Virus record (IMG/VR): IMGVR_UViG_3300028840_002104
Span: 1 to 64,000 of that record
Strand: one strand, 5' to 3'
DNA from: a virus
Length of the DNA: 64,000 nt
In this document: positions 3,132-61,054 of the stretch, piece by piece
Position numbering within the stretch: the first letter of the stretch is position 1
Layout of the letters: each line of letters begins with the position of its first letter
Notes under the pieces: model-generated
The model's database searches: none
What the model was told of the DNA's origin: nothing
Seen by the model: the letters and a program-made list of their open reading frames with translations, nothing else
Program-made: the position numbers and the translations under genes

Positions 3132-4807
3132 TGGTAGGTTCTGTAGCAGTAAATCCCGTAAAGAGGAAACAGATAAGGAAAACGACGTCCAAAGTTGACG
3201 TTGAATTCCTTGCGGAAACCTGTACGCGGGAAAATAGCATTATTGAGGTTCCCACCAAGGTCTTGGTGGCTTTCATTGTGGAGCTTGCTCAGTTCCTCTC
3301 TGAGAAGGAGTTCTATTCGTACCAGCTCCTTCCCTGCATGAGGATGATTGAGTCAGTTCTGAACCACGATGCGGCCACTATCACTGGTCTTTTCTCGCGC
3401 CAGAGCGGAAAGACTGAGATGGTGGCTGGAACTATGGCCTCCTGTGCTATTGCTCTACCTTTCTTAGCCAACCATCCCCTGTTCGAGGGAGACTGGCGTC
3501 TCAACATGACGGATGAGCGGGGAAGGTATAGAGGCTACAAAAATGGAGTAAAGATTGGTATCTATGCTCCTAAGAGAGACCAGGCAAGGCTTCAGTTTGA
3601 GCGGCTAGTCAGGGATTTGAGTACTGACACAGCAACTCAAGTGCTCGAAGAGCTTGGTCTGGAGTTTACTGCCAAGAACAGAGGCTTTGTAAGGCTTACG
3701 AATGGCTCTGAGATCATAGCAAGCTCTGCCTCGGATACTTCCCATGTGGAGGGCTCTACTCACCACATTTTGGTCATGGAAGAGGCTCAAGACATCAGTC
3801 AAAGGAAGATCCTGAAGAGCTTGAGGCCGATGATTGCTGCCACCAAGGGAAGTACCGTCATGATCGGAACCGCCACGACAAAGAAAGGCGAGTTCTACCA
3901 TTCAATTAGACGGAACCTCCATGCTTACGCCACGGGTGACAGGAGAGACAACTTCTGCGTTCCTTGGAGAGTGGCCGCCAAAGAAAACTCCTTGTATCGA
4001 GAGTATGTGACCGAGCAGATCCGACAGTACGGAGAAGACTCAGACGAAATTCGGATGTCCTACGGCTGCGAGTGGATACTTGAAAGAGGGATGTTTGTCA
4101 CTCCTGCTCAGTTGATGAACCCCTTTGTGGCTCTTACGGAAGGCCCTTATTCTTTCTTCCACTTTGGAAGCAAAAACAAAGACCAGTGCGCGGGAATTGA
4201 CTTTGGAAAAGGTCAAAGTTCTACTGTCATAACAGTCGTGGAGGTTGATTGGACAGAGCCTGACTTTGACCAGTTTGTTATGACCCCTGACGGAGAAGTT
4301 CACTATGTTTCCTACAAGAAGCACGTGATAAACTGGTATGAGATCCACGGCGACAACTGGGAAAGACAGTTTGCCCTCATTCTGGAGTTTCTCTTCCAGT
4401 TTCCGAATATGTCCAAGATCACTTTGGATCGAACAGGTCTTGGAGAAGTCCTCTGTGACCGCTTCATCGCAACTGTGGGAGAAGAGATTGAGGTTGAAGG
4501 GATCGCTTTCAGTAGACCTATGAAATCAGACGGCTACAAGAACTATTCCTTTGATCTCATGGGAGGAAGGTGGACCTTTCCTGCCAATCCCGCTATTCGG
4601 CATGAGATGAGCTGGAAGAGGTTCGTGAAGCAAATGCTGGACCTCCAGAAGACCTATGTAGGGAATTTGATGGTTTGCGAGAAGCCGGACGAAAAAGGCG
4701 CATTGGATGACTTTCCTGACAGTGGAATGCTGTCAAACATATCAGGAAATCGACCGGCAAGATCAACTGACGTAGAAGTTACTGACAACGTGTTTTTTAT
4801 GTCATAG
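3131..4807 (+). CDS. terL: Terminase large subunit
   Basis: Walker A FSRQSGKT, Walker B LVMEEAQD, RNase H-like nuclease motifs GIDFGK / LDRTGLG / DDFPDS. Confidence 0.93.
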   Translation: MVGSVAVNPVKRKQIRKTTSKVDVEFLAETCTRENSIIEVPTKVLVAFIVELAQFLSEKEFYSYQLLPCMRMIESVLNHDAATITGLFSRQSGKTEMVAGTMASCAIALPFLANHPLFEGDWRLNMTDERGRYRGYKNGVKIGIYAPKRDQARLQFERLVRDLSTDTATQVLEELGLEFTAKNRGFVRLTNGSEIIASSASDTSHVEGSTHHILVMEEAQDISQRKILKSLRPMIAATKGSTVMIGTATTKKGEFYHSIRRNLHAYATGDRRDNFCVPWRVAAKENSLYREYVTEQIRQYGEDSDEIRMSYGCEWILERGMFVTPAQLMNPFVALTEGPYSFFHFGSKNKDQCAGIDFGKGQSSTVITVVEVDWTEPDFDQFVMTPDGEVHYVSYKKHVINWYEIHGDNWERQFALILEFLFQFPNMSKITLDRTGLGEVLCDRFIATVGEEIEVEGIAFSRPMKSDGYKNYSFDLMGGRWTFPANPAIRHEMSWKRFVKQMLDLQKTYVGNLMVCEKPDEKGALDDFPDSGMLSNISGNRPARSTDVEVTDNVFFMS

Positions 4808-4819
4808 ACGGAGGCTCTG

Positions 4820-6532
4820 ATGGCCTTATCTGCTTATCGGCGTGTTACCGACTTCATGGGCCTTACGGACAAGTACTTGGACGCTGCTCTCTTTGGTTCA
4901 TCTATTCTAGATGTAAGCCGTATGCAGTCGGATGAGTGGCAAGAGATGGCAGTCCAGAGACTCGATCGCTACCGAGAGAACTGGATGTTCTACAAGGGAG
5001 ATCAATTTGTCCAGTACATGGCCGATGGCGAGAGAAAATCTGTACTAAACTACTGTCGGAAAGTAGCTGACAAGAGCACAGATTGGCTCTTTGCTACGCC
5101 TTTTGAGGTTGTATCGCCTCCAGGGAACGAGGCTGCTTCCCTCATGGTGGAGTCAGTCTTCAGAGCAAACAGAATGGCCCTGCAAGCCTACTACGGCGGA
5201 CAAATGGGCGCGGTGACAGGTGACTGCTTCTTTCAGGTCACGCTGAATACCCATGAGATAGACGCATACTCAGGAGAAAGAATTCAAATTCCATTCGATC
5301 AGTGGCAGATCAGAATAAGGAGACTTGACTCCTCTCACGTTTTTCCAGTTTTCAGTTCCGACGACCCGCATAGAATGGAAGCCTGTTTGATCCAGTATCC
5401 CATCAGCGCGTCAGCACCTATAGTGTCAAGAATCGACCCAAGAGCTGCGGAGGCCAAGAGCCGGAGGGCTCTCTATAGCATCTTCATCACTCCCACTGAA
5501 GTTCGGGAGTTCATCAATCATGAAGAAACCGATTGGTCTCCTTTCCCCAACCTTCTGGGAGAGATTGGTGTGGTTCACATCCAAAATCTCGCGTTGGCGA
5601 AAAGCAGCTTTGGCTTCAGTGACTTAGACGGCATCAAGGAACTCTGTGAGGACCTGAATACTGTCGTCTCAAACATCAGGCAAATCATAGACAATCACGC
5701 AAATCCGATTACTATCCTTTATGGAGCAAGAGTAGGTCAGTTAGTCAGAGGACCGAACAAGCTCTGGGGACTTCCTGAAAAGGCAAGGGTTGAAATCTTG
5801 AAGCTTGAAGGGGAGCTTACGGCTGCTGTAGCCTTCACGGATATGTTGAAGGACGAGATATCGGTTCACAGTGATACTCCACGCTCTGCCCTTCAGACCC
5901 CTCCGAGCGTGGGGAACACAACCAAGGCAGCTATTGACATGGTTTTCTTGCCTCTGACTGAAAAGACGCTTCGCAAGCACTTGACCTATGGAGACGGCCT
6001 TGCTAGGCTAGGAGGTATAGTACTTAGAGCCCTTGAACGGATCTTTCTCCTCGATTTAAGGAGCTACGTTGCTTATCCACAAAGGCGATACGACCTCAAG
6101 ATCAAGTTCGGATCTCCGATACCGGAGAACGAAATCGAGAAGCTTGAAGTCACTCGCCAGAAGCTGGAACTTGGCCTTGAGTCCAAGTACAGCTCTCTTG
6201 TGAACTTAGGCGTAGAAGACGTGAGGAAAAAGATCGTTGAAATACTTGCGGATGAAAGAGAGAAACTAGTAGTTGACGCAGAGAGAGGAAAAGCGGCACA
6301 AGGCATGATACCCAATTTGAGAGCCTTGTCGCTTGGTAGTTTGGCTATTGGTGGAGATCTAGTTGAGATCTTCGAGGCGGACGATGAGATTTTTGAGCAG
6401 ACTGCCCAGATTGCTAAGGACCTGCAAGATAGCCTCACACAGCTTCAGGTTGCACAGCAACAGGAACAGATGATGGCTGAGCAGGCCGAGATGGAAGAAA
6501 TGGAAGGCATGGTAGAAGATTCGTCCACGTGA
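4820..6532 (+). CDS. Portal protein (SPP1 gp6-like)
   Basis: Follows terL; 570 aa; NYCRKVAD, VVHIQN..FGFSDL, helical acidic C-terminus typical of portals. Confidence 0.85.
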   Translation: MALSAYRRVTDFMGLTDKYLDAALFGSSILDVSRMQSDEWQEMAVQRLDRYRENWMFYKGDQFVQYMADGERKSVLNYCRKVADKSTDWLFATPFEVVSPPGNEAASLMVESVFRANRMALQAYYGGQMGAVTGDCFFQVTLNTHEIDAYSGERIQIPFDQWQIRIRRLDSSHVFPVFSSDDPHRMEACLIQYPISASAPIVSRIDPRAAEAKSRRALYSIFITPTEVREFINHEETDWSPFPNLLGEIGVVHIQNLALAKSSFGFSDLDGIKELCEDLNTVVSNIRQIIDNHANPITILYGARVGQLVRGPNKLWGLPEKARVEILKLEGELTAAVAFTDMLKDEISVHSDTPRSALQTPPSVGNTTKAAIDMVFLPLTEKTLRKHLTYGDGLARLGGIVLRALERIFLLDLRSYVAYPQRRYDLKIKFGSPIPENEIEKLEVTRQKLELGLESKYSSLVNLGVEDVRKKIVEILADEREKLVVDAERGKAAQGMIPNLRALSLGSLAIGGDLVEIFEADDEIFEQTAQIAKDLQDSLTQLQVAQQQEQMMAEQAEMEEMEGMVEDSST

Positions 6533-53538: not shown

Positions 53539-53567
53539 GGGGAGGTCGTTTCGGCCTCCCCTTTTTT
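53539..53567 (+). terminator. Rho-independent terminator
   Basis: GGGGAGGTCG-TTT-CGGCCTCCCC followed by T6. Confidence 0.85.
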
Positions 53568-53583
53568 GAATGGAGGTATGACA

Positions 53584-54351
53584 ATGGATGCTAGAATTAG
53601 GGCGCTTCTTCTCTTTTCAGGTGGTCTTGATAGCACAGTAGCCTTGTGGCATATCCTGAAAGACCACGATCTTCGGACAGTCTGTCTTCACTTTACCCAC
53701 GGGCTGAAACCTACTCACCATATCACCGATCTATCCGCAATCATCAATGAAGCCAATGATGAGTTCGGAAGAAACAGTGTCACTCTTGAGGTTGTTCATC
53801 TTCCCGACTTTTGGCTAGGTCTTGAGGACTACCAGCCTGAGTGGAGACTGAAAGCAGCCGAAGGCCCTACCAACAGGGAAATTCTCCACGCTCGAAACCT
53901 GGTCTATCTGTCTCTTGCTGTTCCTTACGCCATCCGTTTTGGGGCCAACAATATTTTCACAGGATTTCTCGCTGGTGTTCCTGTCGTCCCACCTGACGCG
54001 ACTCTTCAGTTCTCGGAAATGGCAGAAAAGGTTATCCACGAAGCGATAGGCGAAACTCTTCTAGAGAACTTTGGCGGCCTGGCCGTCATTTCTCCCATGA
54101 TAGCTATGGATAAGCTAGATGTCTGGAAACACGCAGATCAGTTTGGCATTCTAGGTCTTGTCAAGGATCGTGCGTCTAGTTGCAACGCATTCTTCATCAA
54201 TGACCCTGATCTCCTTGTTGCGGAGCATTCTTGGGGATGGGGTTGCGGTAAATGTCAGTCATGCGAAGAAAGGGCGAATTCCTGGGAAGCATTTCAGAAA
54301 ATCAGAAAGGTCGGAGGCAAAGGTGAACAGCAGGGAGAGACAGAAGGCTGA
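53584..54351 (+). CDS. queC: 7-cyano-7-deazaguanine synthase
   Basis: LFSGGLDST, ARNLVYLSLA, C-terminal SC...GCGKCQSCEER Zn motif. Confidence 0.88.
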   Translation: MDARIRALLLFSGGLDSTVALWHILKDHDLRTVCLHFTHGLKPTHHITDLSAIINEANDEFGRNSVTLEVVHLPDFWLGLEDYQPEWRLKAAEGPTNREILHARNLVYLSLAVPYAIRFGANNIFTGFLAGVPVVPPDATLQFSEMAEKVIHEAIGETLLENFGGLAVISPMIAMDKLDVWKHADQFGILGLVKDRASSCNAFFINDPDLLVAEHSWGWGCGKCQSCEERANSWEAFQKIRKVGGKGEQQGETEG

Positions 54352-54922
54352 GAATGCCCTTCGGCGGATGTTCTCAGTTTACCGCGACAAGGACGATATT
54401 CCGCACATAGAGTTTAAGACGACCAGTACGAAAGACACTCCCGCACGTGTAGTTCGTATGTACGAGGAGTTCTTCTCTGCGGAAGAGCCTGACTTCACAA
54501 CCTTTTCCGCTGATGTAGACACTCTTGTCGTTGTTCGGGATATCGAGTTTGTCTCTGTCTGCGAACATCATCTACTCCCATTCTATGGCCGCGCCCATGT
54601 AGGCTACCTGCCAGACGGGAAAATAGCTGGCTTGTCAAAGTTTGGTCGTGTGGTTGACTTCTTCGCCAAGAGGCCGCAGCTTCAGGAAAGAATGACTGAT
54701 GAGACTGCGGAGTATCTTATGAAGAAGCTCAAGCCACGCGCTCTGTGTGTTTATGTGGAAGCCAAGCATACTTGCATGGCTCTGCGCGGAACAAGAAAGC
54801 TCAATTCAACTACGGTTACTCATGCAATTCGAGGGAATGAAGAGAAAGTGCGTTTCGAGGTGAAGCGTGAATTTCTCCAGATGCTAAAAGGAGGTCTGAG
54901 TAATGGTGGCAACAGTTATTAA
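54323..54922 (+). CDS. folE: GTP cyclohydrolase I
   Basis: TPARV, SVCEHHLLPFYG, GLSKFGR, RPQLQERMT, HTCMALRG. Confidence 0.95.
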   Translation: MNSRERQKAENALRRMFSVYRDKDDIPHIEFKTTSTKDTPARVVRMYEEFFSAEEPDFTTFSADVDTLVVVRDIEFVSVCEHHLLPFYGRAHVGYLPDGKIAGLSKFGRVVDFFAKRPQLQERMTDETAEYLMKKLKPRALCVYVEAKHTCMALRGTRKLNSTTVTHAIRGNEEKVRFEVKREFLQMLKGGLSNGGNSY

Positions 54923-55382
54923 GCAACTGAAGTCTCTCTCCCTTGCCCACAAGCTCACTTCTCGTAAGGCGGGAAAGTGTTGTCGTCTACACGGGCATAA
55001 CTACCAAATTACGGTTTTCTATGAGGACGAGGTTGATGAAGAGACTGGCATGGTTCTGAACTTTAGTGAGTTCGACCTTCTTGAGGAGTTTATTTCTTGG
55101 CTTTTTGACCACAGAGCGGTCAAGAAGGCTACCAGGCACACTAAGGATTACTTGGCTTTTCCTTTTGAGCCTACGGCTGAGATGCTGGCCGCCACTATCG
55201 CTTACTCAGCTTTTCTGACGCTCAAGCCTTCAGCTCACGGAGCGATTATGGTGCAGGTGTCTGAAACAGACAGGTGCGCTGCCAGATATCGCTTAGCTTT
55301 AGGAGGGCTTCCGGAGAAGCTAGAGGATTGGATTGTAGACATGCTATCTCGTTTTAGAGTAGGGGGAGTGGCACATGAGTGA
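54903..55382 (+). CDS. queD: 6-carboxytetrahydropterin synthase
   Basis: AHKL..CCRLHGHNY, GMVLNF, FDH, PTAEMLA, VSET. Confidence 0.92.
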   Translation: MVATVIKQLKSLSLAHKLTSRKAGKCCRLHGHNYQITVFYEDEVDEETGMVLNFSEFDLLEEFISWLFDHRAVKKATRHTKDYLAFPFEPTAEMLAATIAYSAFLTLKPSAHGAIMVQVSETDRCAARYRLALGGLPEKLEDWIVDMLSRFRVGGVAHE

Positions 55383-56013
55383 GCGGCTGAAGATTAACGA
55401 CATCTTTCTGAGTATTCAAGGAGAAGGTCAGTATGTGGGGACTCCGATGGTCTTCATCAGATTCGCAGGATGCAATCTTTCCTGTAGCTGGTGTGATACG
55501 GACAAGTATGAGCACTACTGCATGACAGCGGAGCAGGTCTTTAACTATATCAAGACTCTTTGTAACTATCCTAGTTCTATTCCTGTCTGTCTTACAGGAG
55601 GGGAGCCTCTTCTTCAATGGGGATTGGCAATGGAAGAGCTTGCCAACAGGCTTATAGAGAAAGGCTCAGGACTTCATCTTGAGACGAACGGTCTTCTGCT
55701 CGACGGAGAGATTGGTCTAGGTGTTTTTGACTATGTTACGGTTAGTCCTAAGCCCCCCTCTTCAGGCTGCGAAACTCTTGACTACTGGGATAGCTTAGCT
55801 CTCTCTCGCGCTGATGAGTTTAAGGTTGTGATAGCAGATCAGGAGGACTACAATTGGGTTGTTCAGAATGCTTGCTGGTTTGTTGATCGTCCCCTTTTTC
55901 TCCAGCCTTGTGACGGAAGGTCTTCTTTCTCTGATCTCTGGGAGATGTGGCAGAAGAACCCTATCCCCTGTCGGATACTTCCTCAAGTCCACAAGCTCGT
56001 GGGCGTCAAGTAA
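55375..56013 (+). CDS. queE: 7-carboxy-7-deazaguanine synthase (radical SAM)
   Basis: SIQGEG, FIRFAGCNLSCSWCDT, LTGGEP, LETNG, VSPK, QVHK. Confidence 0.93.
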   Translation: MSERLKINDIFLSIQGEGQYVGTPMVFIRFAGCNLSCSWCDTDKYEHYCMTAEQVFNYIKTLCNYPSSIPVCLTGGEPLLQWGLAMEELANRLIEKGSGLHLETNGLLLDGEIGLGVFDYVTVSPKPPSSGCETLDYWDSLALSRADEFKVVIADQEDYNWVVQNACWFVDRPLFLQPCDGRSSFSDLWEMWQKNPIPCRILPQVHKLVGVK

Positions 56014-56042
56014 ATTACTGTCAAAATACCTGCCATATCCTC

Positions 56043-56072
56043 TTGACGCCCCTCTCCTATGAATGGTACAAT
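56043..56072 (+). promoter_or_regulatory. Sigma70/sigmaA-type promoter
   Basis: TTGACG-18 bp-TACAAT with extended -10 TG. Confidence 0.7.
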
Positions 56073-56153
56073 GATAGTGCAAAATGCGAGAATGAATGTA
56101 TGATTCGGAGGTAACCACAATGGGCGTGGTTACACAGATGCAAGGAGGTCAAG

Positions 56154-56492
56154 ATGACGCGGTTATTGTCAGAATCCATGCCTTTTGAGATGAGGCCATT
56201 CCTCTCTCCACAAGAGCTGGAAGAAGCCATCTCAAGCAAAGAGGGAATGGACGCTCTTCTAGCCAAGATGCAAGAGCATCATGGTGCCAACGAGGAGCAC
56301 CAGAGATCCTTTCTCTCTAAACCTATGTCTTTTGTAGGTCCCGCCCATGCGATTCTCTACATGGTGCGCGTATCCAAGGAGCTTTGGCCAGAGGCGCGTA
56401 TCACGGTCAGAAAGATCACAGTTCGGAAGAATGACATGGGGTCTGGGTTCGTTCCAGGCGTCCTGAAGGCGTTTGTTACTTTGAAGTCTTGA
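56154..56492 (+). CDS. Hypothetical protein
   Basis: AAGGAGGT RBS. Confidence 0.55.
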   Translation: MTRLLSESMPFEMRPFLSPQELEEAISSKEGMDALLAKMQEHHGANEEHQRSFLSKPMSFVGPAHAILYMVRVSKELWPEARITVRKITVRKNDMGSGFVPGVLKAFVTLKS

Positions 56493-56502
56493 GGAGTGTG
56501 TC

Positions 56503-56955
56503 ATGGGTTCGCTCAAGATGGTCACAAAGAGGCGTATTCGCCGCCCTATTTATAGGTATCCAGAGCTTCAGGCTTTGGTAGAGAGCGCGGATATTCACAA
56601 AGGGTCCAAGGTTACGAGGGTCGATAGGTGGAATCGAGAGACACAAGTTCTAGATTTCACTACAGTCGTTGGAGAGCCCTTGTCCCAGGGAAGGAGGTTC
56701 AATACTGTCAAGAGGTTTCTTGTCGAAGTGCCTGTGGTTGTGGTCGAAGGAGATGATGGTTTACCAGTAGCCGCGACACTTCAATCGTTTCCGCCGGATT
56801 ATCGTCTGACAGAAGCGATCATTGTGCCATGGTTAGTCCAGAAAGCCGAGCGCCAGGCGAAGAAGGCGCGGAGGAAAGACCTAGACATTGGTTTGGTCAG
56901 CCAACCGTTTGGGGTGATTACCGCTCAGTATCCAACGTTTGCGAAAAGGAGATGA
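56503..56955 (+). CDS. Hypothetical basic protein
   Basis: GAGGAG RBS. Confidence 0.55.
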   Translation: MGSLKMVTKRRIRRPIYRYPELQALVESADIHKGSKVTRVDRWNRETQVLDFTTVVGEPLSQGRRFNTVKRFLVEVPVVVVEGDDGLPVAATLQSFPPDYRLTEAIIVPWLVQKAERQAKKARRKDLDIGLVSQPFGVITAQYPTFAKRR

Positions 56956-56957
56956 AA

Positions 56958-58052
56958 ATGGTTGAAAAGAAAGATGTGGCTAACATTCTTAGTGGTATTA
57001 TCACTCAGGCTGAGACAATCAAGGATCAGGCTGAGTGGCTTCTCTCTAAGTTTGGTGGCAGCAAGAAAGAGCAGAAGGAATCGCCTGGCGCGAAGTCTGA
57101 AACAAGTCTTCAGGATGAGATGAGAGTCTTTCCCAAGCCTGACGTCATCAAAGAGATGGGCAGAGAGAAGTGCCTGGAGTGGTTTGACGCTCTTGGTCTC
57201 AGCACGGCTGAGCATAAGAACGACTCTCCGTCCAAGCTCCGAACGGATCTCTTGGTCATGGCGGTTGCCATAGATGGTGACAGCTCTTCAAGGCATCATA
57301 AGGTGACTGTTGCTCAGGTGGCCGCGCTCCTGGAATGCGAGGTAGAAGATGAGGACAATAAGACGGTCCTTCTTACCAAGATTGGTGAAGCAATATCTCA
57401 GCGCCTGAACAGCGGACAAGAAGTTGAGGAGGGTCCTGATGAGGAAGAGACAGAAGAAGGCCCTGAAGAAGAAGAAACGCCTTCAGGCGAAGGAGAAGAA
57501 GAGACAGAGGAAGGTCCAGACGAAGAAGAGGAAGAGACACCTGATGACGGCGAAGAGGAGGAAGGCCCAGAAGAAGGCCCGGAAGAAGCGAACTTAGGCG
57601 GAGATTTTGTCCTGAAGCCCAAGTTCATCAAGAAGGCCAAGGAGAGCATAGCTGAAGAGGTGGAGAAAGACAGCAATGCTGTTGCGGAACTAGCTGTTGA
57701 GGCTAAGGTCAACTGGGTTCCCTTCCTGCCTGAAGATGTCCAGAAAGCCGCGCTAGACATGAGCGACGAGGACTTAGTTCTCGCTTTTGAGTGCGCCTTT
57801 GTTGATGATGAGGGAGAAGATCATGACTGGGATGAGGCGTATTCTCATAACGGCACGGTGTTCTGCAATGGCGTTGATGTCAAGGAACATGAAGGTGATG
57901 AGGACTTCACTTGGCATTCAAGCGTAGAGTCGCCGCCAGAGGGCATTGATCCCAGTGACTTTGGAATAGGCGTTTCTCGTGGTTCCGATGAGACTCACTA
58001 CTTCATGATCCATGATGGGAAAATTCTTGAAGTAGAACCCGTGTCAGGCTGA
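56958..58052 (+). CDS. Extremely acidic protein with EEGP(D/E)EEET repeats
   Basis: AAGGAG RBS; Glu-rich tandem repeats encoded at ~57420-57590 and acidic C-terminal domain. Confidence 0.65.
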   Translation: MVEKKDVANILSGIITQAETIKDQAEWLLSKFGGSKKEQKESPGAKSETSLQDEMRVFPKPDVIKEMGREKCLEWFDALGLSTAEHKNDSPSKLRTDLLVMAVAIDGDSSSRHHKVTVAQVAALLECEVEDEDNKTVLLTKIGEAISQRLNSGQEVEEGPDEEETEEGPEEEETPSGEGEEETEEGPDEEEEETPDDGEEEEGPEEGPEEANLGGDFVLKPKFIKKAKESIAEEVEKDSNAVAELAVEAKVNWVPFLPEDVQKAALDMSDEDLVLAFECAFVDDEGEDHDWDEAYSHNGTVFCNGVDVKEHEGDEDFTWHSSVESPPEGIDPSDFGIGVSRGSDETHYFMIHDGKILEVEPVSG

Positions 58053-58075
58053 ATTTTCTGGCTGACCGTGGCCAC

Positions 58076-58109
58076 GAGGAGGAAGTCTCTCTTTTGGGGC
58101 TTCCTCCTC
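58076..58109. terminator. GC-rich hairpin upstream of pentamer array (terminator/processing site)
   Basis: GAGGAGGAAGTCTC-TCTTTT-GGGGCTTCCTCCTC, 14-bp stem with two G-U pairs; no clear U-tract. Confidence 0.55.
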
Positions 58110-58154
58110 ACCCCCTAAAAGTTATGCTCAGAGTTATTGCATTTGTTCATAAGG

Positions 58155-58466
58155 GGTTGGGCTTGGCGTGTTGAGGTTGGTTTCGTTCAGGCACGTTTAG
58201 GTTGGTTACGGCTAGGTCTGGTTAGGTTGGCCATGGCGTGGAAAGGTTAGGTTGGCTGTGGTTTGGTAGTGCAGGGTTTGGTCCCTAGTGGGGTCTGTTG
58301 GGTTCAGTTTTGGTTAGGTCTGTTGGGTTGAGGTATGTTCAGTTCTGGCCGGTCATGGCGCGTTGAGTTGCGGTTTGTTTCGTTAAGGCGGGGCGAGCTT
58401 AGGTGTGGTTTGTTTTGGTCCGGTAGGGTCGGTTTGGGTTGGTTGGGTTAAGGTTTGGTATGTCTA
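58155..58466 (+). ncRNA. Non-coding pentamer array (GKY-NN)x61; candidate guide RNA for the adjacent RAMP-like protein
   Basis: Two in-phase blocks (58155-58284, 26 units; 58292-58466, 35 units); G at position 1 in 60/61, pyrimidine at position 3 in 60/61, G/T at position 2 in 58/61; positions 4-5 use all 16 dinucleotides. Confidence 0.75.
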
Positions 58467-58484
58467 CTTGAAAGGATGTGAGTT

Positions 58485-59108
58485 ATGCCAGCAAAGAAAG
58501 TTGCAAAGGTGTTAGGTCCTGAAGTTTCTAACGGTGCCAAGGTTGCTATTGAGTCAGGAATTCCATTTACGCTCAGAGCAAGGGTGCGGGGTGTTTCTCC
58601 AGGTCTCATTATGCATGCTTGGAACTGTGAGGCAATAGCTAATCTTCCAGGCAAAGGCGCAAAGAAGAAGGATGATCTTGAGACTTATGTTCGGCGTGAT
58701 GACGAAGGTTATCTTTGCATTCCAGGTGAGTATTTTAGGGGCTCTATGATTAATGCGGGCAGATCCAGAAAAGATCCCAGATCTTCTAGGAAATCCATGA
58801 TGGATCTTTTGAAGGCGGCAGTTATTCCTCTGACCTATTTGGCTCCTATTAGTCCTAAGTCTAAGGAGTGGCCTAAAGTGCATAAGTGCCGAGCGGTCAT
58901 TCAGCGTTCGGCTATTACTAGAGAACGTCCCTGGTGGCCTGAAGGGTGGGAAGCTCAGATAGACCTTCAGTGTATTATGCCTGAATACGTGAGTCCCACG
59001 GTGTTTCACGACATCTTGGTAGATGCGGGAAGGTTTGTGGGTGTGGCTGACTATCGTCCTACTTACGGTCGTTTTCAGGTTATTCACAGCGAGATTCTTG
59101 AGGACTAG
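58485..59108 (+). CDS. Stand-alone Cas7/RAMP-like RNA-binding protein
   Basis: RVRGVSPGLIMH (RAMP first strand), DDEGYLCIPGEYFRGSMINA (IPGSSLKG-like), C-terminal G-loop GRFVGVADYRPTYGRFQV; no other cas genes nearby. Confidence 0.7.
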   Translation: MPAKKVAKVLGPEVSNGAKVAIESGIPFTLRARVRGVSPGLIMHAWNCEAIANLPGKGAKKKDDLETYVRRDDEGYLCIPGEYFRGSMINAGRSRKDPRSSRKSMMDLLKAAVIPLTYLAPISPKSKEWPKVHKCRAVIQRSAITRERPWWPEGWEAQIDLQCIMPEYVSPTVFHDILVDAGRFVGVADYRPTYGRFQVIHSEILED

Positions 59109-59132
59109 AGGTGTCTTGGTTGTGGCCAAAAC

Positions 59133-59168
59133 GGGGAGAGGGTCGCTTGTGAGAGAGGCTCTCTCCCC
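59133..59168. terminator. GC-rich hairpin downstream of RAMP-like gene
   Basis: GGGGAGAGGGTC-N12-GGCTCTCTCCCC. Confidence 0.5.
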
Positions 59169-59193
59169 ACCTCCTATTTTAGAAGGGAATATC

Positions 59194-59472
59194 ATGGCTG
59201 CGAAAGCGGGTCTGAAAGCTAAAGAACACCTGTGGCGGCATAACTACAGGAAGCTTAGCCCTCGTGAGCAGAGGGAAGGGCAGCCTCCGTTCATTGAATG
59301 TTTTCTCTGCGGGAGTTATACTTCTGTTCAGGGTAGAGAATGGGTTCAGATGGCCTCTTTGTCTCCTCGGATGTTGAAGAAAGAGGGTCTAGATGGGTTT
59401 CCTCAGACTCACCTTTTGGTCTGTCGTCTCTGCGAGAGGGATCTTTTGAGATTGGAGAAGTCCTTTGCCTAG
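59194..59472 (+). CDS. Small Zn-finger protein
   Basis: CFLC...CRLC. Confidence 0.5.
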   Translation: MAAKAGLKAKEHLWRHNYRKLSPREQREGQPPFIECFLCGSYTSVQGREWVQMASLSPRMLKKEGLDGFPQTHLLVCRLCERDLLRLEKSFA

Positions 59473-59487
59473 AATCAGGAGAATCTC

Positions 59488-59742
59488 ATGAACATTGAAA
59501 GCTTGAAAGATGCAGAAGCTCATGTGAGGGTTGCTCAAAACATTCTTACGGCTCAAAGGAAAAAGTGTCCCGATGATGGGCCTTACGAAGATTTAGACAA
59601 GGGAATTAAAGCCTGTTCTTGGGTCCTTTCGTCTCTTGAGGATGTGCTTAACGATTTTCCTCGCAAGTACACGTGCTCTGTTTGTGGCGCTATCTTTGAG
59701 CCCTCTTGTCCTGTTTGCGCGATGTATTTGGACGAAGGTTAG
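59488..59742 (+). CDS. Small protein with C-terminal Zn finger
   Basis: CSVC...CPVC; AGGAG RBS. Confidence 0.5.
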   Translation: MNIESLKDAEAHVRVAQNILTAQRKKCPDDGPYEDLDKGIKACSWVLSSLEDVLNDFPRKYTCSVCGAIFEPSCPVCAMYLDEG

Positions 59743-59752
59743 GAGGTCTCTG

Positions 59753-61054
59753 TTGCCTAGAATCTTCTATGCGGGAACTGATGAAGATGAATTCTACAAC
59801 CTATCATGCGAGCAAGGCGTTGATGCACAGCTTGTCTCTTTCTACAAAATGCGGAAATGGCCTGCCCTACTCCGCAAGCGGAAAGAAGAGCATCCAGAGG
59901 TAGACTTCTTTGTTGATTCGGGGGCCTACACGTTTCAGCGAGAAAAGGGTCAAGAGCTTACCCTTGATGATTACGAGCTTTACGCGGAAGAGTACACCAA
60001 GTATCTAGAGACAAACATTGACTGTATATTTGCTGCGGCAGAGCTGGATGTTGAACAGGTTGTAGGGCTGGAGAGAGTGTATAGATGGCAGCGGGAATTG
60101 TTTGCTCCTCTTGAGGATCGCATCCCCATTGTGTATGTCTGGCATCCTTTTCGCGGTCCAGATGGCTGGACAGAGATGTGCAAGCAGCATGAGTATGTGG
60201 GCTTCTCCCGCGACGTCTCGCATGAAGAGCGCGTGAGACTGCTTGCCACAGCGCGGAAATATCTGACCAAGGTCCATGGCTTTGGTATCACTGACTCCAC
60301 CTCTCTGAGAACGCTGAATTGCTATTCCGTGGACTCTCTGACGTGGAAGACTTGTGAGATGTATGGCACTACCTACTATTGGGACGGTTCTACGCTGAAG
60401 GTCTTCGATAAGACGCAGAAAGATCAGAGGCGCAGGTTCAGAGGCCAGTTTGAGACTCTAGGACTTGACTGGGCGGCCATTGAGAATGATGAAAGGCGAG
60501 AGATCACTAGAGCTTCCCTGATGGCCTTTCGTCTCATGGAATTCGCGATGGAGAGGCGGGCGGTCATGGTCCCCTTCTGGGAGTATCGAGTCCCTCCAAG
60601 AGAGCTGAGCCCTGAAGACATCTCGAAGTGGGCAGAGAAGTTTGGCTGGAAGAATGCTGAGTTTGATGATTCTGAAGAGGACAAGTTCTATGTGAGTCTT
60701 GTCCAGGCTGTGCAGAACAACTGGGGACTTGAAGACTATGATCCAGAGGATCTGGCAGAAGGTCTTGGCTGGCTTCTGAAGAGTCACGGGAAAGTCACGA
60801 GTGATCCTCACGACGCGGCGATTTATGACAAGATTCGGGTGAAGATGAATGATTGCTTGGTGCCGAAGAAGACATTCGCGGTGCCGAGGACTTCAAATGA
60901 GGTATTTCTAGACAGGTTCCCAAAGCCTAGAGCAAGGTCTTTAGAACCTACTGACTACAATACTTTGGACTGGCGAGAAGTGGATAAGAACATGGCTGCG
61001 GCGCTAGATGCAGGTGTCCGCGAAACGATGGAGGATTCTGATGGGCTTTTCTGA
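59753..61054 (+). CDS. dpdA: DpdA-like DNA guanine transglycosylase (TGT fold) with C-terminal extension
   Basis: FFVDSGAYTF, ELDV, VWH, KVHGFG, YSVDSLTW motifs; preQ0 pathway encoded nearby. Confidence 0.72.
   Translation: MPRIFYAGTDEDEFYNLSCEQGVDAQLVSFYKMRKWPALLRKRKEEHPEVDFFVDSGAYTFQREKGQELTLDDYELYAEEYTKYLETNIDCIFAAAELDVEQVVGLERVYRWQRELFAPLEDRIPIVYVWHPFRGPDGWTEMCKQHEYVGFSRDVSHEERVRLLATARKYLTKVHGFGITDSTSLRTLNCYSVDSLTWKTCEMYGTTYYWDGSTLKVFDKTQKDQRRRFRGQFETLGLDWAAIENDERREITRASLMAFRLMEFAMERRAVMVPFWEYRVPPRELSPEDISKWAEKFGWKNAEFDDSEEDKFYVSLVQAVQNNWGLEDYDPEDLAEGLGWLLKSHGKVTSDPHDAAIYDKIRVKMNDCLVPKKTFAVPRTSNEVFLDRFPKPRARSLEPTDYNTLDWREVDKNMAAALDAGVRETMEDSDGLF

Follow-up and report, generated by a model that had tools for sequence, protein, structure and literature searches.

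A probable VIPR locus in the genome of an uncultured marine phage

The genome of an uncultured phage carries a long array of five-base units in which three letters are conserved and two (NN) vary, directly upstream of a gene for a 207-residue protein. Are the variable letters guides to other DNA, and if so, which protein reads them and by what rule? The initial annotation, made by a model from the letters and a list of open reading frames, held that the NN letters bear information and offered two forms that a target might take, namely, the concatenated NN string or a gapped NNx pattern that would ignore codon wobble positions.

A system with such arrays, VIPR (Viral Interference Programmable Repeat), was first described in 2026 (bioRxiv 10.64898/2026.04.26.720920, 10.64898/2026.04.26.720927, and 10.64898/2026.10.15.759431). 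As set out in these preprints, it comprises a minimal stand-alone RAMP protein (Vipr, with an RRM core, a G-loop, and a thumb) and vrRNAs of alternating GGY and NN, with one Vipr protomer per repeat and neighboring protomers burying G1, G2, and Y3. Targets are recognized by pairing of NN with double-stranded DNA, in which one base out of every three is passed over (the “1-nt skip,” NNx); the skipped base is mostly the codon wobble position, which blocks synonymous escape. The preprints describe VIPR as requiring no PAM and as silencing the transcription of rival phages, prophages, and satellites, and in their experiments, swapping the NN letters alone reprogrammed the target. The RAMP effectors of CRISPR have been proposed to descend from VIPR. 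Here, we report that the array and the gene downstream of it very probably form a VIPR locus; this kind of system is already published, and the locus adds a member with modest variant traits.

Materials and Methods

The window analyzed is a stretch of 64,000 nucleotides (positions 1 to 64,000 of IMG/VR virus record IMGVR_UViG_3300028840_002104); the whole record is 85,818 bp long, has direct terminal repeats, and is estimated to be 100% complete. Array uniqueness was assessed with an 8-unit GKYNN pattern (≤2 mismatches, expectation from shuffles). The comparison set consisted of 154 loci encoding relatives of the protein, taken from IMG/VR and GTDB genomes (1.3 Mb), in which arrays were called strictly (G[GT][CT]NN, at least 8 units). 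For the skip-rule test, 295 unique arrays were compared with the 1.3 Mb of the 154 loci, arrays masked, and scored as unique guide-target pairs with at least 18 of 20 letters in the best 10-unit window, alongside five shuffled-guide runs. An all-against-all alignment of arrays was discarded as circular, as any two GGYNN arrays align. To look for targets of the window’s guides, exact 8- to 9-unit NNx seeds that together covered 57 of the 61 units were run against IMG/VR (six scans) and JGI metagenomes (one scan).

Results

The array (Table 1) occupies 312 bases of the + strand as 61 five-base units with a strict 5-nt period. Both NN strings of the initial annotation were correct on re-derivation (61/61 dinucleotides), all 16 dinucleotides were present, and the NN entropy was 3.84 of 4 bits (1.92 and 1.93 bits at unit positions 4 and 5). 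Its description of positions 1 to 3 as near-invariant holds for position 1 (G in 60/61; 0.12 bits) but is somewhat overstated for position 2, which is G or T (G 36, T 22, C 3; 1.19 bits), and for position 3, a pyrimidine (T 47, C 13, A 1; 0.86 bits). By class, 56/61 units were G[GT][CT], with 34/61 of the published GGY kind and 22/61 GTY, and 5/61 were irregular; the array as a whole was G/T-rich (G, 41%; T, 37%). The definition given in the VIPR preprints calls for GGY/NN or “a related consensus” in at least 4 units beside vipr and allows internal degeneracy. The GKYNN pattern gave 44 overlapping matches, every one inside the array and on the + strand (0.04 expected from shuffles), and no other such array was present anywhere in the complete 85.8-kb phage genome. 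No long open reading frame spans the array, and its RNA folded at the level of shuffled sequence (z = −0.33).

Table 1 Positions in the window of the array, the vipr gene, and neighboring features
Feature	Position	Strand	Description
7-Deazaguanine (preQ0) cluster, 5′ part	53566..56013		queC-like, folE, queD, queE
Upstream gene	56829..58052	+	407-aa protein; long acidic Glu/Pro/Gly-rich repeat region
Hairpin	58076..58109	+	GC-rich, 14 bp; between upstream stop (58052) and array
Array block 1, vrRNA	58155..58284	+	26 pentamers G(G/T)Y-NN
Register break CTAGTGG	58285..58291	+	7 nt; shifts pentamer frame by +2
Array block 2, vrRNA	58292..58466	+	35 pentamers G(G/T)Y-NN; 17 are GTY
Shine-Dalgarno-like AAGGA	58472..58476	+	8 nt 5′ of vipr start codon; read from sequence
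vipr gene	58485..59108	+	207-aa stand-alone RAMP (Cas7/Csm3-like)
Small ORF	59191..59472	+	Two CxxC-type Cys pairs; zinc-ribbon-like
Small ORF	59488..59742	+	Two CxxC-type Cys pairs; zinc-ribbon-like
7-Deazaguanine (preQ0) cluster, 3′ part	59636..61054		dpdA-like transglycosylase

Block 1 contains three copies of the 10-nt motif GKTTAGGTTG, at 58195, 58220, and 58245, an exact 25-nt spacing that amounts to a 5-unit super-period (lag-5 NN autocorrelation, P = 0.004, uncorrected), and the unit after each copy has a letter other than G at position 2 (GTT, GCC, and GCT). The recurrence could reflect a history of 5-unit duplication, punctuation, or a guide for a 15-bp tandem repeat. Units 1 to 5 and 6 to 10 of block 2 form a diverged 25-nt duplication; tandem-repeat detection (TRF) found weak internal duplications and nothing else.

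The 7-nt phase break that had been noticed between the blocks was borne out. It may separate guides or filaments, and marks one boundary at most; a hairpin local to it was not above chance (z = −0.1). Among 91 inter-array gaps in relatives L009 to L162, most register shifts were either 0, with blocks in frame across degenerate units, or +1, which was the commonest out-of-frame shift, and the +2 shift seen in the window was rare (5/91). Successive blocks shifted by +1 are the “staggered” arrays of the VIPR preprints. As a break motif, TAGTGG was set aside after weak enrichment near arrays (7 seen versus about 2.4 expected).

Upstream of the array, the segment 58053 to 58154, which holds the GC-rich hairpin, has a folding energy of −38.3 kcal/mol (z = −3.9 versus shuffles), and no T-run lies 3′ of the hairpin. 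The hairpin may be a terminator, an insulator, or a 5′ boundary, processing, or stability element of the array transcript, and its membership in the system is uncertain. The vipr start lies 18 nt past the array end on the same strand; as the array runs up to the vipr ribosome-binding site, it forms the 5′ leader of the vipr mRNA. No 3′ tail or pseudoknot was recognizable, block 1 being followed by the 7-nt break and block 2 by the ribosome-binding site; positions 58440 to 58530 folded no better than shuffles and matched no Rfam family. In the VIPR preprints, a structured 3′ tail capping vrRNAs is described for type II, with a pseudoknot in the SUSP1 clade, and loci “typically” include a vap (vipr-accessory) gene. 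No vap gene was recognizable here, and no open reading frame within 6 kb was common to any of the 153 other Vipr loci.

All genes around the cassette lie on the + strand. The 407-aa protein encoded upstream had no family match and was not seen beside other vipr genes. Directly 3′ of vipr, the two Cys-rich open reading frames had no Pfam or PHROGs match and no counterpart in other Vipr loci; both are candidates for accessory genes specific to this lineage. A 7-deazaguanine gene set (Pfam and PHROGs assignments) brackets the cassette. The phage DNA probably carries 7-deazaguanine modification, and no functional link between the cluster and VIPR was found. A Hoogsteen/7-deazaguanine shield was considered and dropped, the R-loop “triplex” being described in the VIPR preprints as geometric, with a third strand that makes no base contacts.

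The locus is virally encoded, in a genome with terminal repeats and with genes for terminase, portal, major head protein, tape measure, helicases, and a family-A polymerase; relatives of its capsid and terminase proteins infect Bacillus, Streptomyces, and Bacteroides. The window contained zero tRNA genes. Two DNA sequencing runs that contain the phage yielded identical 85,564-bp contigs, which may themselves be where the record comes from, and these revealed no microdiversity; none of the runs listed for it was of RNA. DNA comparison of positions 56000 to 61000 with GenBank phages returned nothing relevant, and an Rfam scan of positions 57000 to 60000 (E up to 10) gave chance matches only. In an Rfam scan of 15 related loci, no hammerhead-interspersed arrays were found; a single hammerhead (L113) was present, on the other strand and some 1.5 kb away from the closest array.

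The 207-aa protein belongs to the unannotated PHROG phrog_4652 and had no Pfam match. Its AlphaFold2 model (pLDDT, 79; pTM, 0.74) had as best Foldseek matches Csm3/Cas7 chains (E about 5e−6, probability 1.0), which build the backbone in CRISPR complexes of types III and VII. A profile built from 27 homologues led to a single solved structure of relevance, chain D of PDB 36pp, “SUSP1 Vipr protein” (E = 4.3e−9); the pairwise match to SUSP1 Vipr was weak (E = 0.03, low identity). In the HMMER alignment, window residues R148, D189, Y190, and R191 correspond to SUSP1 R138, D177, W178, and R179, and the window G-loop (G-V-A-D-Y-R-P-T-Y-G-R-F) aligns with that of SUSP1; H17 was not alignable. According to the VIPR preprints, the SUSP1 contacts are R138 to G2, D177 to G1, W178 to G2 (stacking), and R179 to Y3, so that G1 is read via hydrogen bonds and G2 via stacking plus a salt bridge, and the Y3 pocket shuts out purines. 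The pattern of the window array (invariant G1, relaxed position 2, and a pyrimidine at Y3 in 60/61 units) fits these contacts. The thumb motif reads R-P-W-W-P-E in the window versus R-P-A-x-x-A in the clade. The family is large, with 373 matches in a word-indexed search and 2,650 representatives (E up to 1e−3) in a 50%-identity clustered library, in which the window protein is its own representative.

The 154 related loci come from Planctomycetota, Actinomycetota, Bacillota, Pseudomonadota, and other groups. Arrays lay on the vipr strand in 144/154 loci and on the opposite strand in 3, and the strict caller found zero arrays in unrelated control loci (811 kb); the association of gene and array in the clade is near-universal. 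Arrays adjoin vipr upstream, downstream, or on both sides, and most relatives have a downstream array. Pooled over the clade, units had G (98%), G (90%), and Y (97%) followed by near-uniform NN.

The skip-rule test separated the two proposed target forms at clade level. Plain NN (skip 0) gave 1 pair against a shuffled mean of 4.2 and stayed at background; gapped NNx (skip 1) gave 76 pairs against a shuffled mean of 3.8 (maximum, 5). Skip 2 (NNxx) was likewise at background with 3 pairs (shuffled mean, 3.2), and skip 3 gave 14 (shuffled mean, 3.6), an excess that probably stems from arrays that escaped masking. No guide-target pair lay within the guide’s own locus. The NNx rule thus operates in the Vipr clade to which the window belongs, and the proposal that the NN letters bear information agrees with both this enrichment and the published mechanism. 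The skipped base was codon position 3 in 76/109 matches, as anticipated for a pattern that ignores wobble positions and in agreement with the preprints. Targets lay in related prophages, in a helicase N terminus, RusA, an AAA ATPase, a primase-like gene, and vipr itself. Spans matching at ≥80% in relatives ran to 9 to 19 units (median, 12).

The initial annotation had also named two contrary outcomes, a lack of enrichment over shuffles at every spacing and NN letters as conserved as the triplet. The search instead found NNx enriched at clade level, and in seven pairs of syntenic upstream arrays, mismatch was 0.04, 0.13, 0.22, 0.34, and 0.30 at unit positions 1 to 5, so that NN diverges about 8-fold faster than position 1; the vipr genes beside these pairs had a mismatch of 0.076.

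Several relatives have features of their own. In most (L096 3382 to 7933 and similar), VIPR lies within a prophage replication module in the order AAA ATPase, DUF669-like gene, array, vipr, RusA, array, and DEAD-box helicase. The guides of sibling prophages strike exactly these replication-module genes, which suggests mutual exclusion among close prophages. L009 (IMGVR_UViG_3300014204_000021; 3688 to 3783 and 4494 to 5040) encodes a distant Vipr-like protein (44% identity over 41 residues) with variant arrays on both sides; the upstream units resemble GGA-NN, with a purine at position 3, and the downstream units keep only G-T at positions 2 and 3 (N-G-T-N-N), like the published YNNNG class. 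Phage DSL-LC04 (L260, 2220 to 2470; OR003939.1; Dishui Lake), whose host is given as Gammaproteobacteria, encodes a 45%-identical Vipr annotated as “helix-turn-helix transcriptional regulator” and has a GGYNN array upstream. Its register break, CTTAGTGGGG, resembles CCTAGTGGGG of the window and forms base pairs with a complementary segment that lies about 60 nt further downstream.

For the window’s own guides, spot checks behind the initial annotation had shown no self-target, and this was confirmed across the 85.8-kb genome, where the best matches equaled those of shuffled guides (skips 0 to 3; windows of 10, 12, and 14 units) and none reached 80% over at least 12 units. Other VIPRs are likewise described in the preprints as having no self-target in the source genome. 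Against the 1.3 Mb of related Vipr loci, the guides matched at background level only. The seed scans gave 0 to 23 matches each, with in-register extension at about 25% identity, equal to chance. The shuffled-control pattern search that had been suggested thus yielded NNx pairs for the clade but no natural target for the window guides in the IMG/VR and JGI collections, by a scheme that recovers only about 10% of the clade’s verified pairs because these have a median perfect run of 7 units. The window’s guide letters are T-rich (N4, 39% T) and those of the clade are G-rich at N4 (35% G), like codon position 1; the window’s targets may be antisense, noncoding, or in AT-rich DNA.

Discussion

By homology to SUSP1, the + strand of the locus would be transcribed, and Vipr protomers, predicted to polymerize at one protomer per pentamer, would line up along the RNA. 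Neighboring protomers would bury G1, the G or U at position 2, and Y3, leaving the two NN bases exposed to pair with double-stranded target DNA, every third base of which would be skipped (NNx). The resulting protein-clamped R-loop would keep the targeted gene, which typically belongs to a rival phage, prophage, or satellite, from being transcribed. We infer that the window array is expressed and loaded, and that its targets are competing mobile elements in a marine host. The suggestion that the register break divides just two guides seems doubtful; since matched spans in relatives are 9 to 19 units, the blocks of 26 and 35 units probably contain several guides each, and the array may hold about 4 to 6 guides of 9 to 19 units.

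The type II VIPR of Escherichia phage SUSP1 likewise pairs a stand-alone RAMP of about 200 aa with G-G-pyrimidine/NN pentamers; it is phage encoded, has no self-targeting, and shares the Asp/aromatic/Arg G-loop residues and the thumb Arg. SUSP1 has, as reported, discrete vrRNAs of about 100 nt with 9 to 16 repeats, a 3′ pseudoknot tail, and a vap1 gene (10.64898/2026.04.26.720920 and.720927), whereas the window has two uninterrupted blocks, and the similarity of the proteins is remote. Closer are the Viprs of the retrieved clade (e.g., those of prophages in Phycisphaerae MAGs, Thermomonas, and Alicyclobacillus, and of Phage DSL-LC04, OR003939), at 45 to 54% protein identity, in which arrays flank vipr directly on the same strand and upstream arrays reach the start codon. 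Unlike these relatives, which mostly sit in a replication module and have a second array downstream, the window has a single upstream array between queE and the dpdA-like gene of an 86-kb phage with terminal repeats. In addition, 36% of its units have U as the second scaffold letter, which ranks first among 106 loci of the clade (median, 4%; maximum, 24%); the U fraction was uncorrelated with GC content.

The backbone of class 1 CRISPR-Cas (Cas7/Csm3 on crRNA) has the same RAMP fold, one protomer per fixed RNA step, and a thumb that periodically breaks the guide-target duplex. The window system differs in its step (5 nt versus 6 nt), in that three bases per unit would be buried sequence specifically and two would pair, and in that its guides are fixed parts of the genome and are not acquired. 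Neither a repeat-spacer array (5-nt units only) nor any cas gene was found among the flanking open reading frames (Pfam and PHROGs), and no cas6, cas5, large-subunit, or adaptation genes were recognized near the array.

It is quite improbable that the array derives from a VIPR but is now degenerate or repurposed, as an autoregulatory leader or as a sponge titrating its own or a rival Vipr. The outlying GUY fraction could mean degeneracy, and this reading would suit the missing tail, the position of the array as the 5′ leader of vipr, and the lack of a target in its own genome, the related loci, and the seed scans. The second VIPR paper has vrRNAs serving also to redirect or antagonize VIPR, and decoy vrRNAs that satellites encode in E. 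coli set a partial precedent. G1 and Y3 (60/61 each) are nevertheless as strict as in active arrays, NN is near maximal entropy with no drift to the G/T-rich composition of the scaffold, and the vipr open reading frame is intact with its contact residues conserved. Upstream arrays abutting the vipr start are moreover the rule in the clade, and some have clear targets, while the sensitivity of the target search was low.

The remaining alternatives deny the NN letters any target. In the TRAP-regulated trp leader of Bacillus, an oligomeric protein binds 11 repeats of (G/U)AG triplets with 2- to 3-nt spacers that carry no information, which results in attenuation. The array resembles such sites in its 5-nt period of a conserved triplet plus a 2-nt spacer, repeated and read by an oligomeric protein, and in its place in the 5′ leader of a gene, and it might thus be a periodic protein-binding site, wrapped by the protein to control its own translation. 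The triplet, G(G/U)Y versus GAG/UAG, and the fold, RAMP versus MtrB, are different, however, and most relatives have arrays on the downstream side of vipr as well. Mere spacers would not match prophage genes at NNx about 20-fold over shuffles, as the NN strings of the clade do, nor would changes in NN alone reprogram the target, as the preprints report; we regard a spacer role as highly improbable. The chance that the array is a nonfunctional simple repeat (a slippage microsatellite, a G-quadruplex tract, or another DNA-level element) is practically negligible. The region is G/T-rich and contains the weak duplications found by TRF, but a decaying microsatellite, with which the initial annotation had likewise contrasted the array, would not keep one position 98% fixed beside two at about 1.9 bits. 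The arrays are also strand specific and tied to one gene family in 144/154 loci across many phyla, and 22 units of the window array lack the GG needed for G-tetrads.

Within the VIPR reading, it is possible, though we hold it doubtful, that the locus represents a stripped-down lineage with assembly rules somewhat unlike those of SUSP1, working without vap or a pseudoknot tail, with an unusual thumb that tolerates U at scaffold position 2, and with long multiguide blocks delimited by register breaks or RNase protection rather than by tails. A block 1 guide of such a lineage might aim at a 15-bp tandem repeat, e.g., iterons or a 5-residue protein repeat of a rival element, because the 25-nt super-period equals one filament turn, which in the ternary filament described in the preprints is 5 units and 15 bp of target.

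With this locus, VIPR gains a member encoded by an uncultured phage of marine sediment or seawater that also carries a set of 7-deazaguanine genes. A reading of the raw sequence had arrived at the wobble-skipping NNx rule already established in the 2026 preprints, and the clade data are evidence for the 1-nt skip that does not draw on the preprints’ own work in E. coli and Pseudomonas, extending it to a large, mostly planctomycete-associated clade whose guides aim at the replication and vipr genes of sibling prophages. Phage DSL-LC04 could be an experimental model for this clade. The relaxed G/U position and the absence of a tail and of vap are natural variants that could help to define the minimal requirements for filament assembly and engineering.
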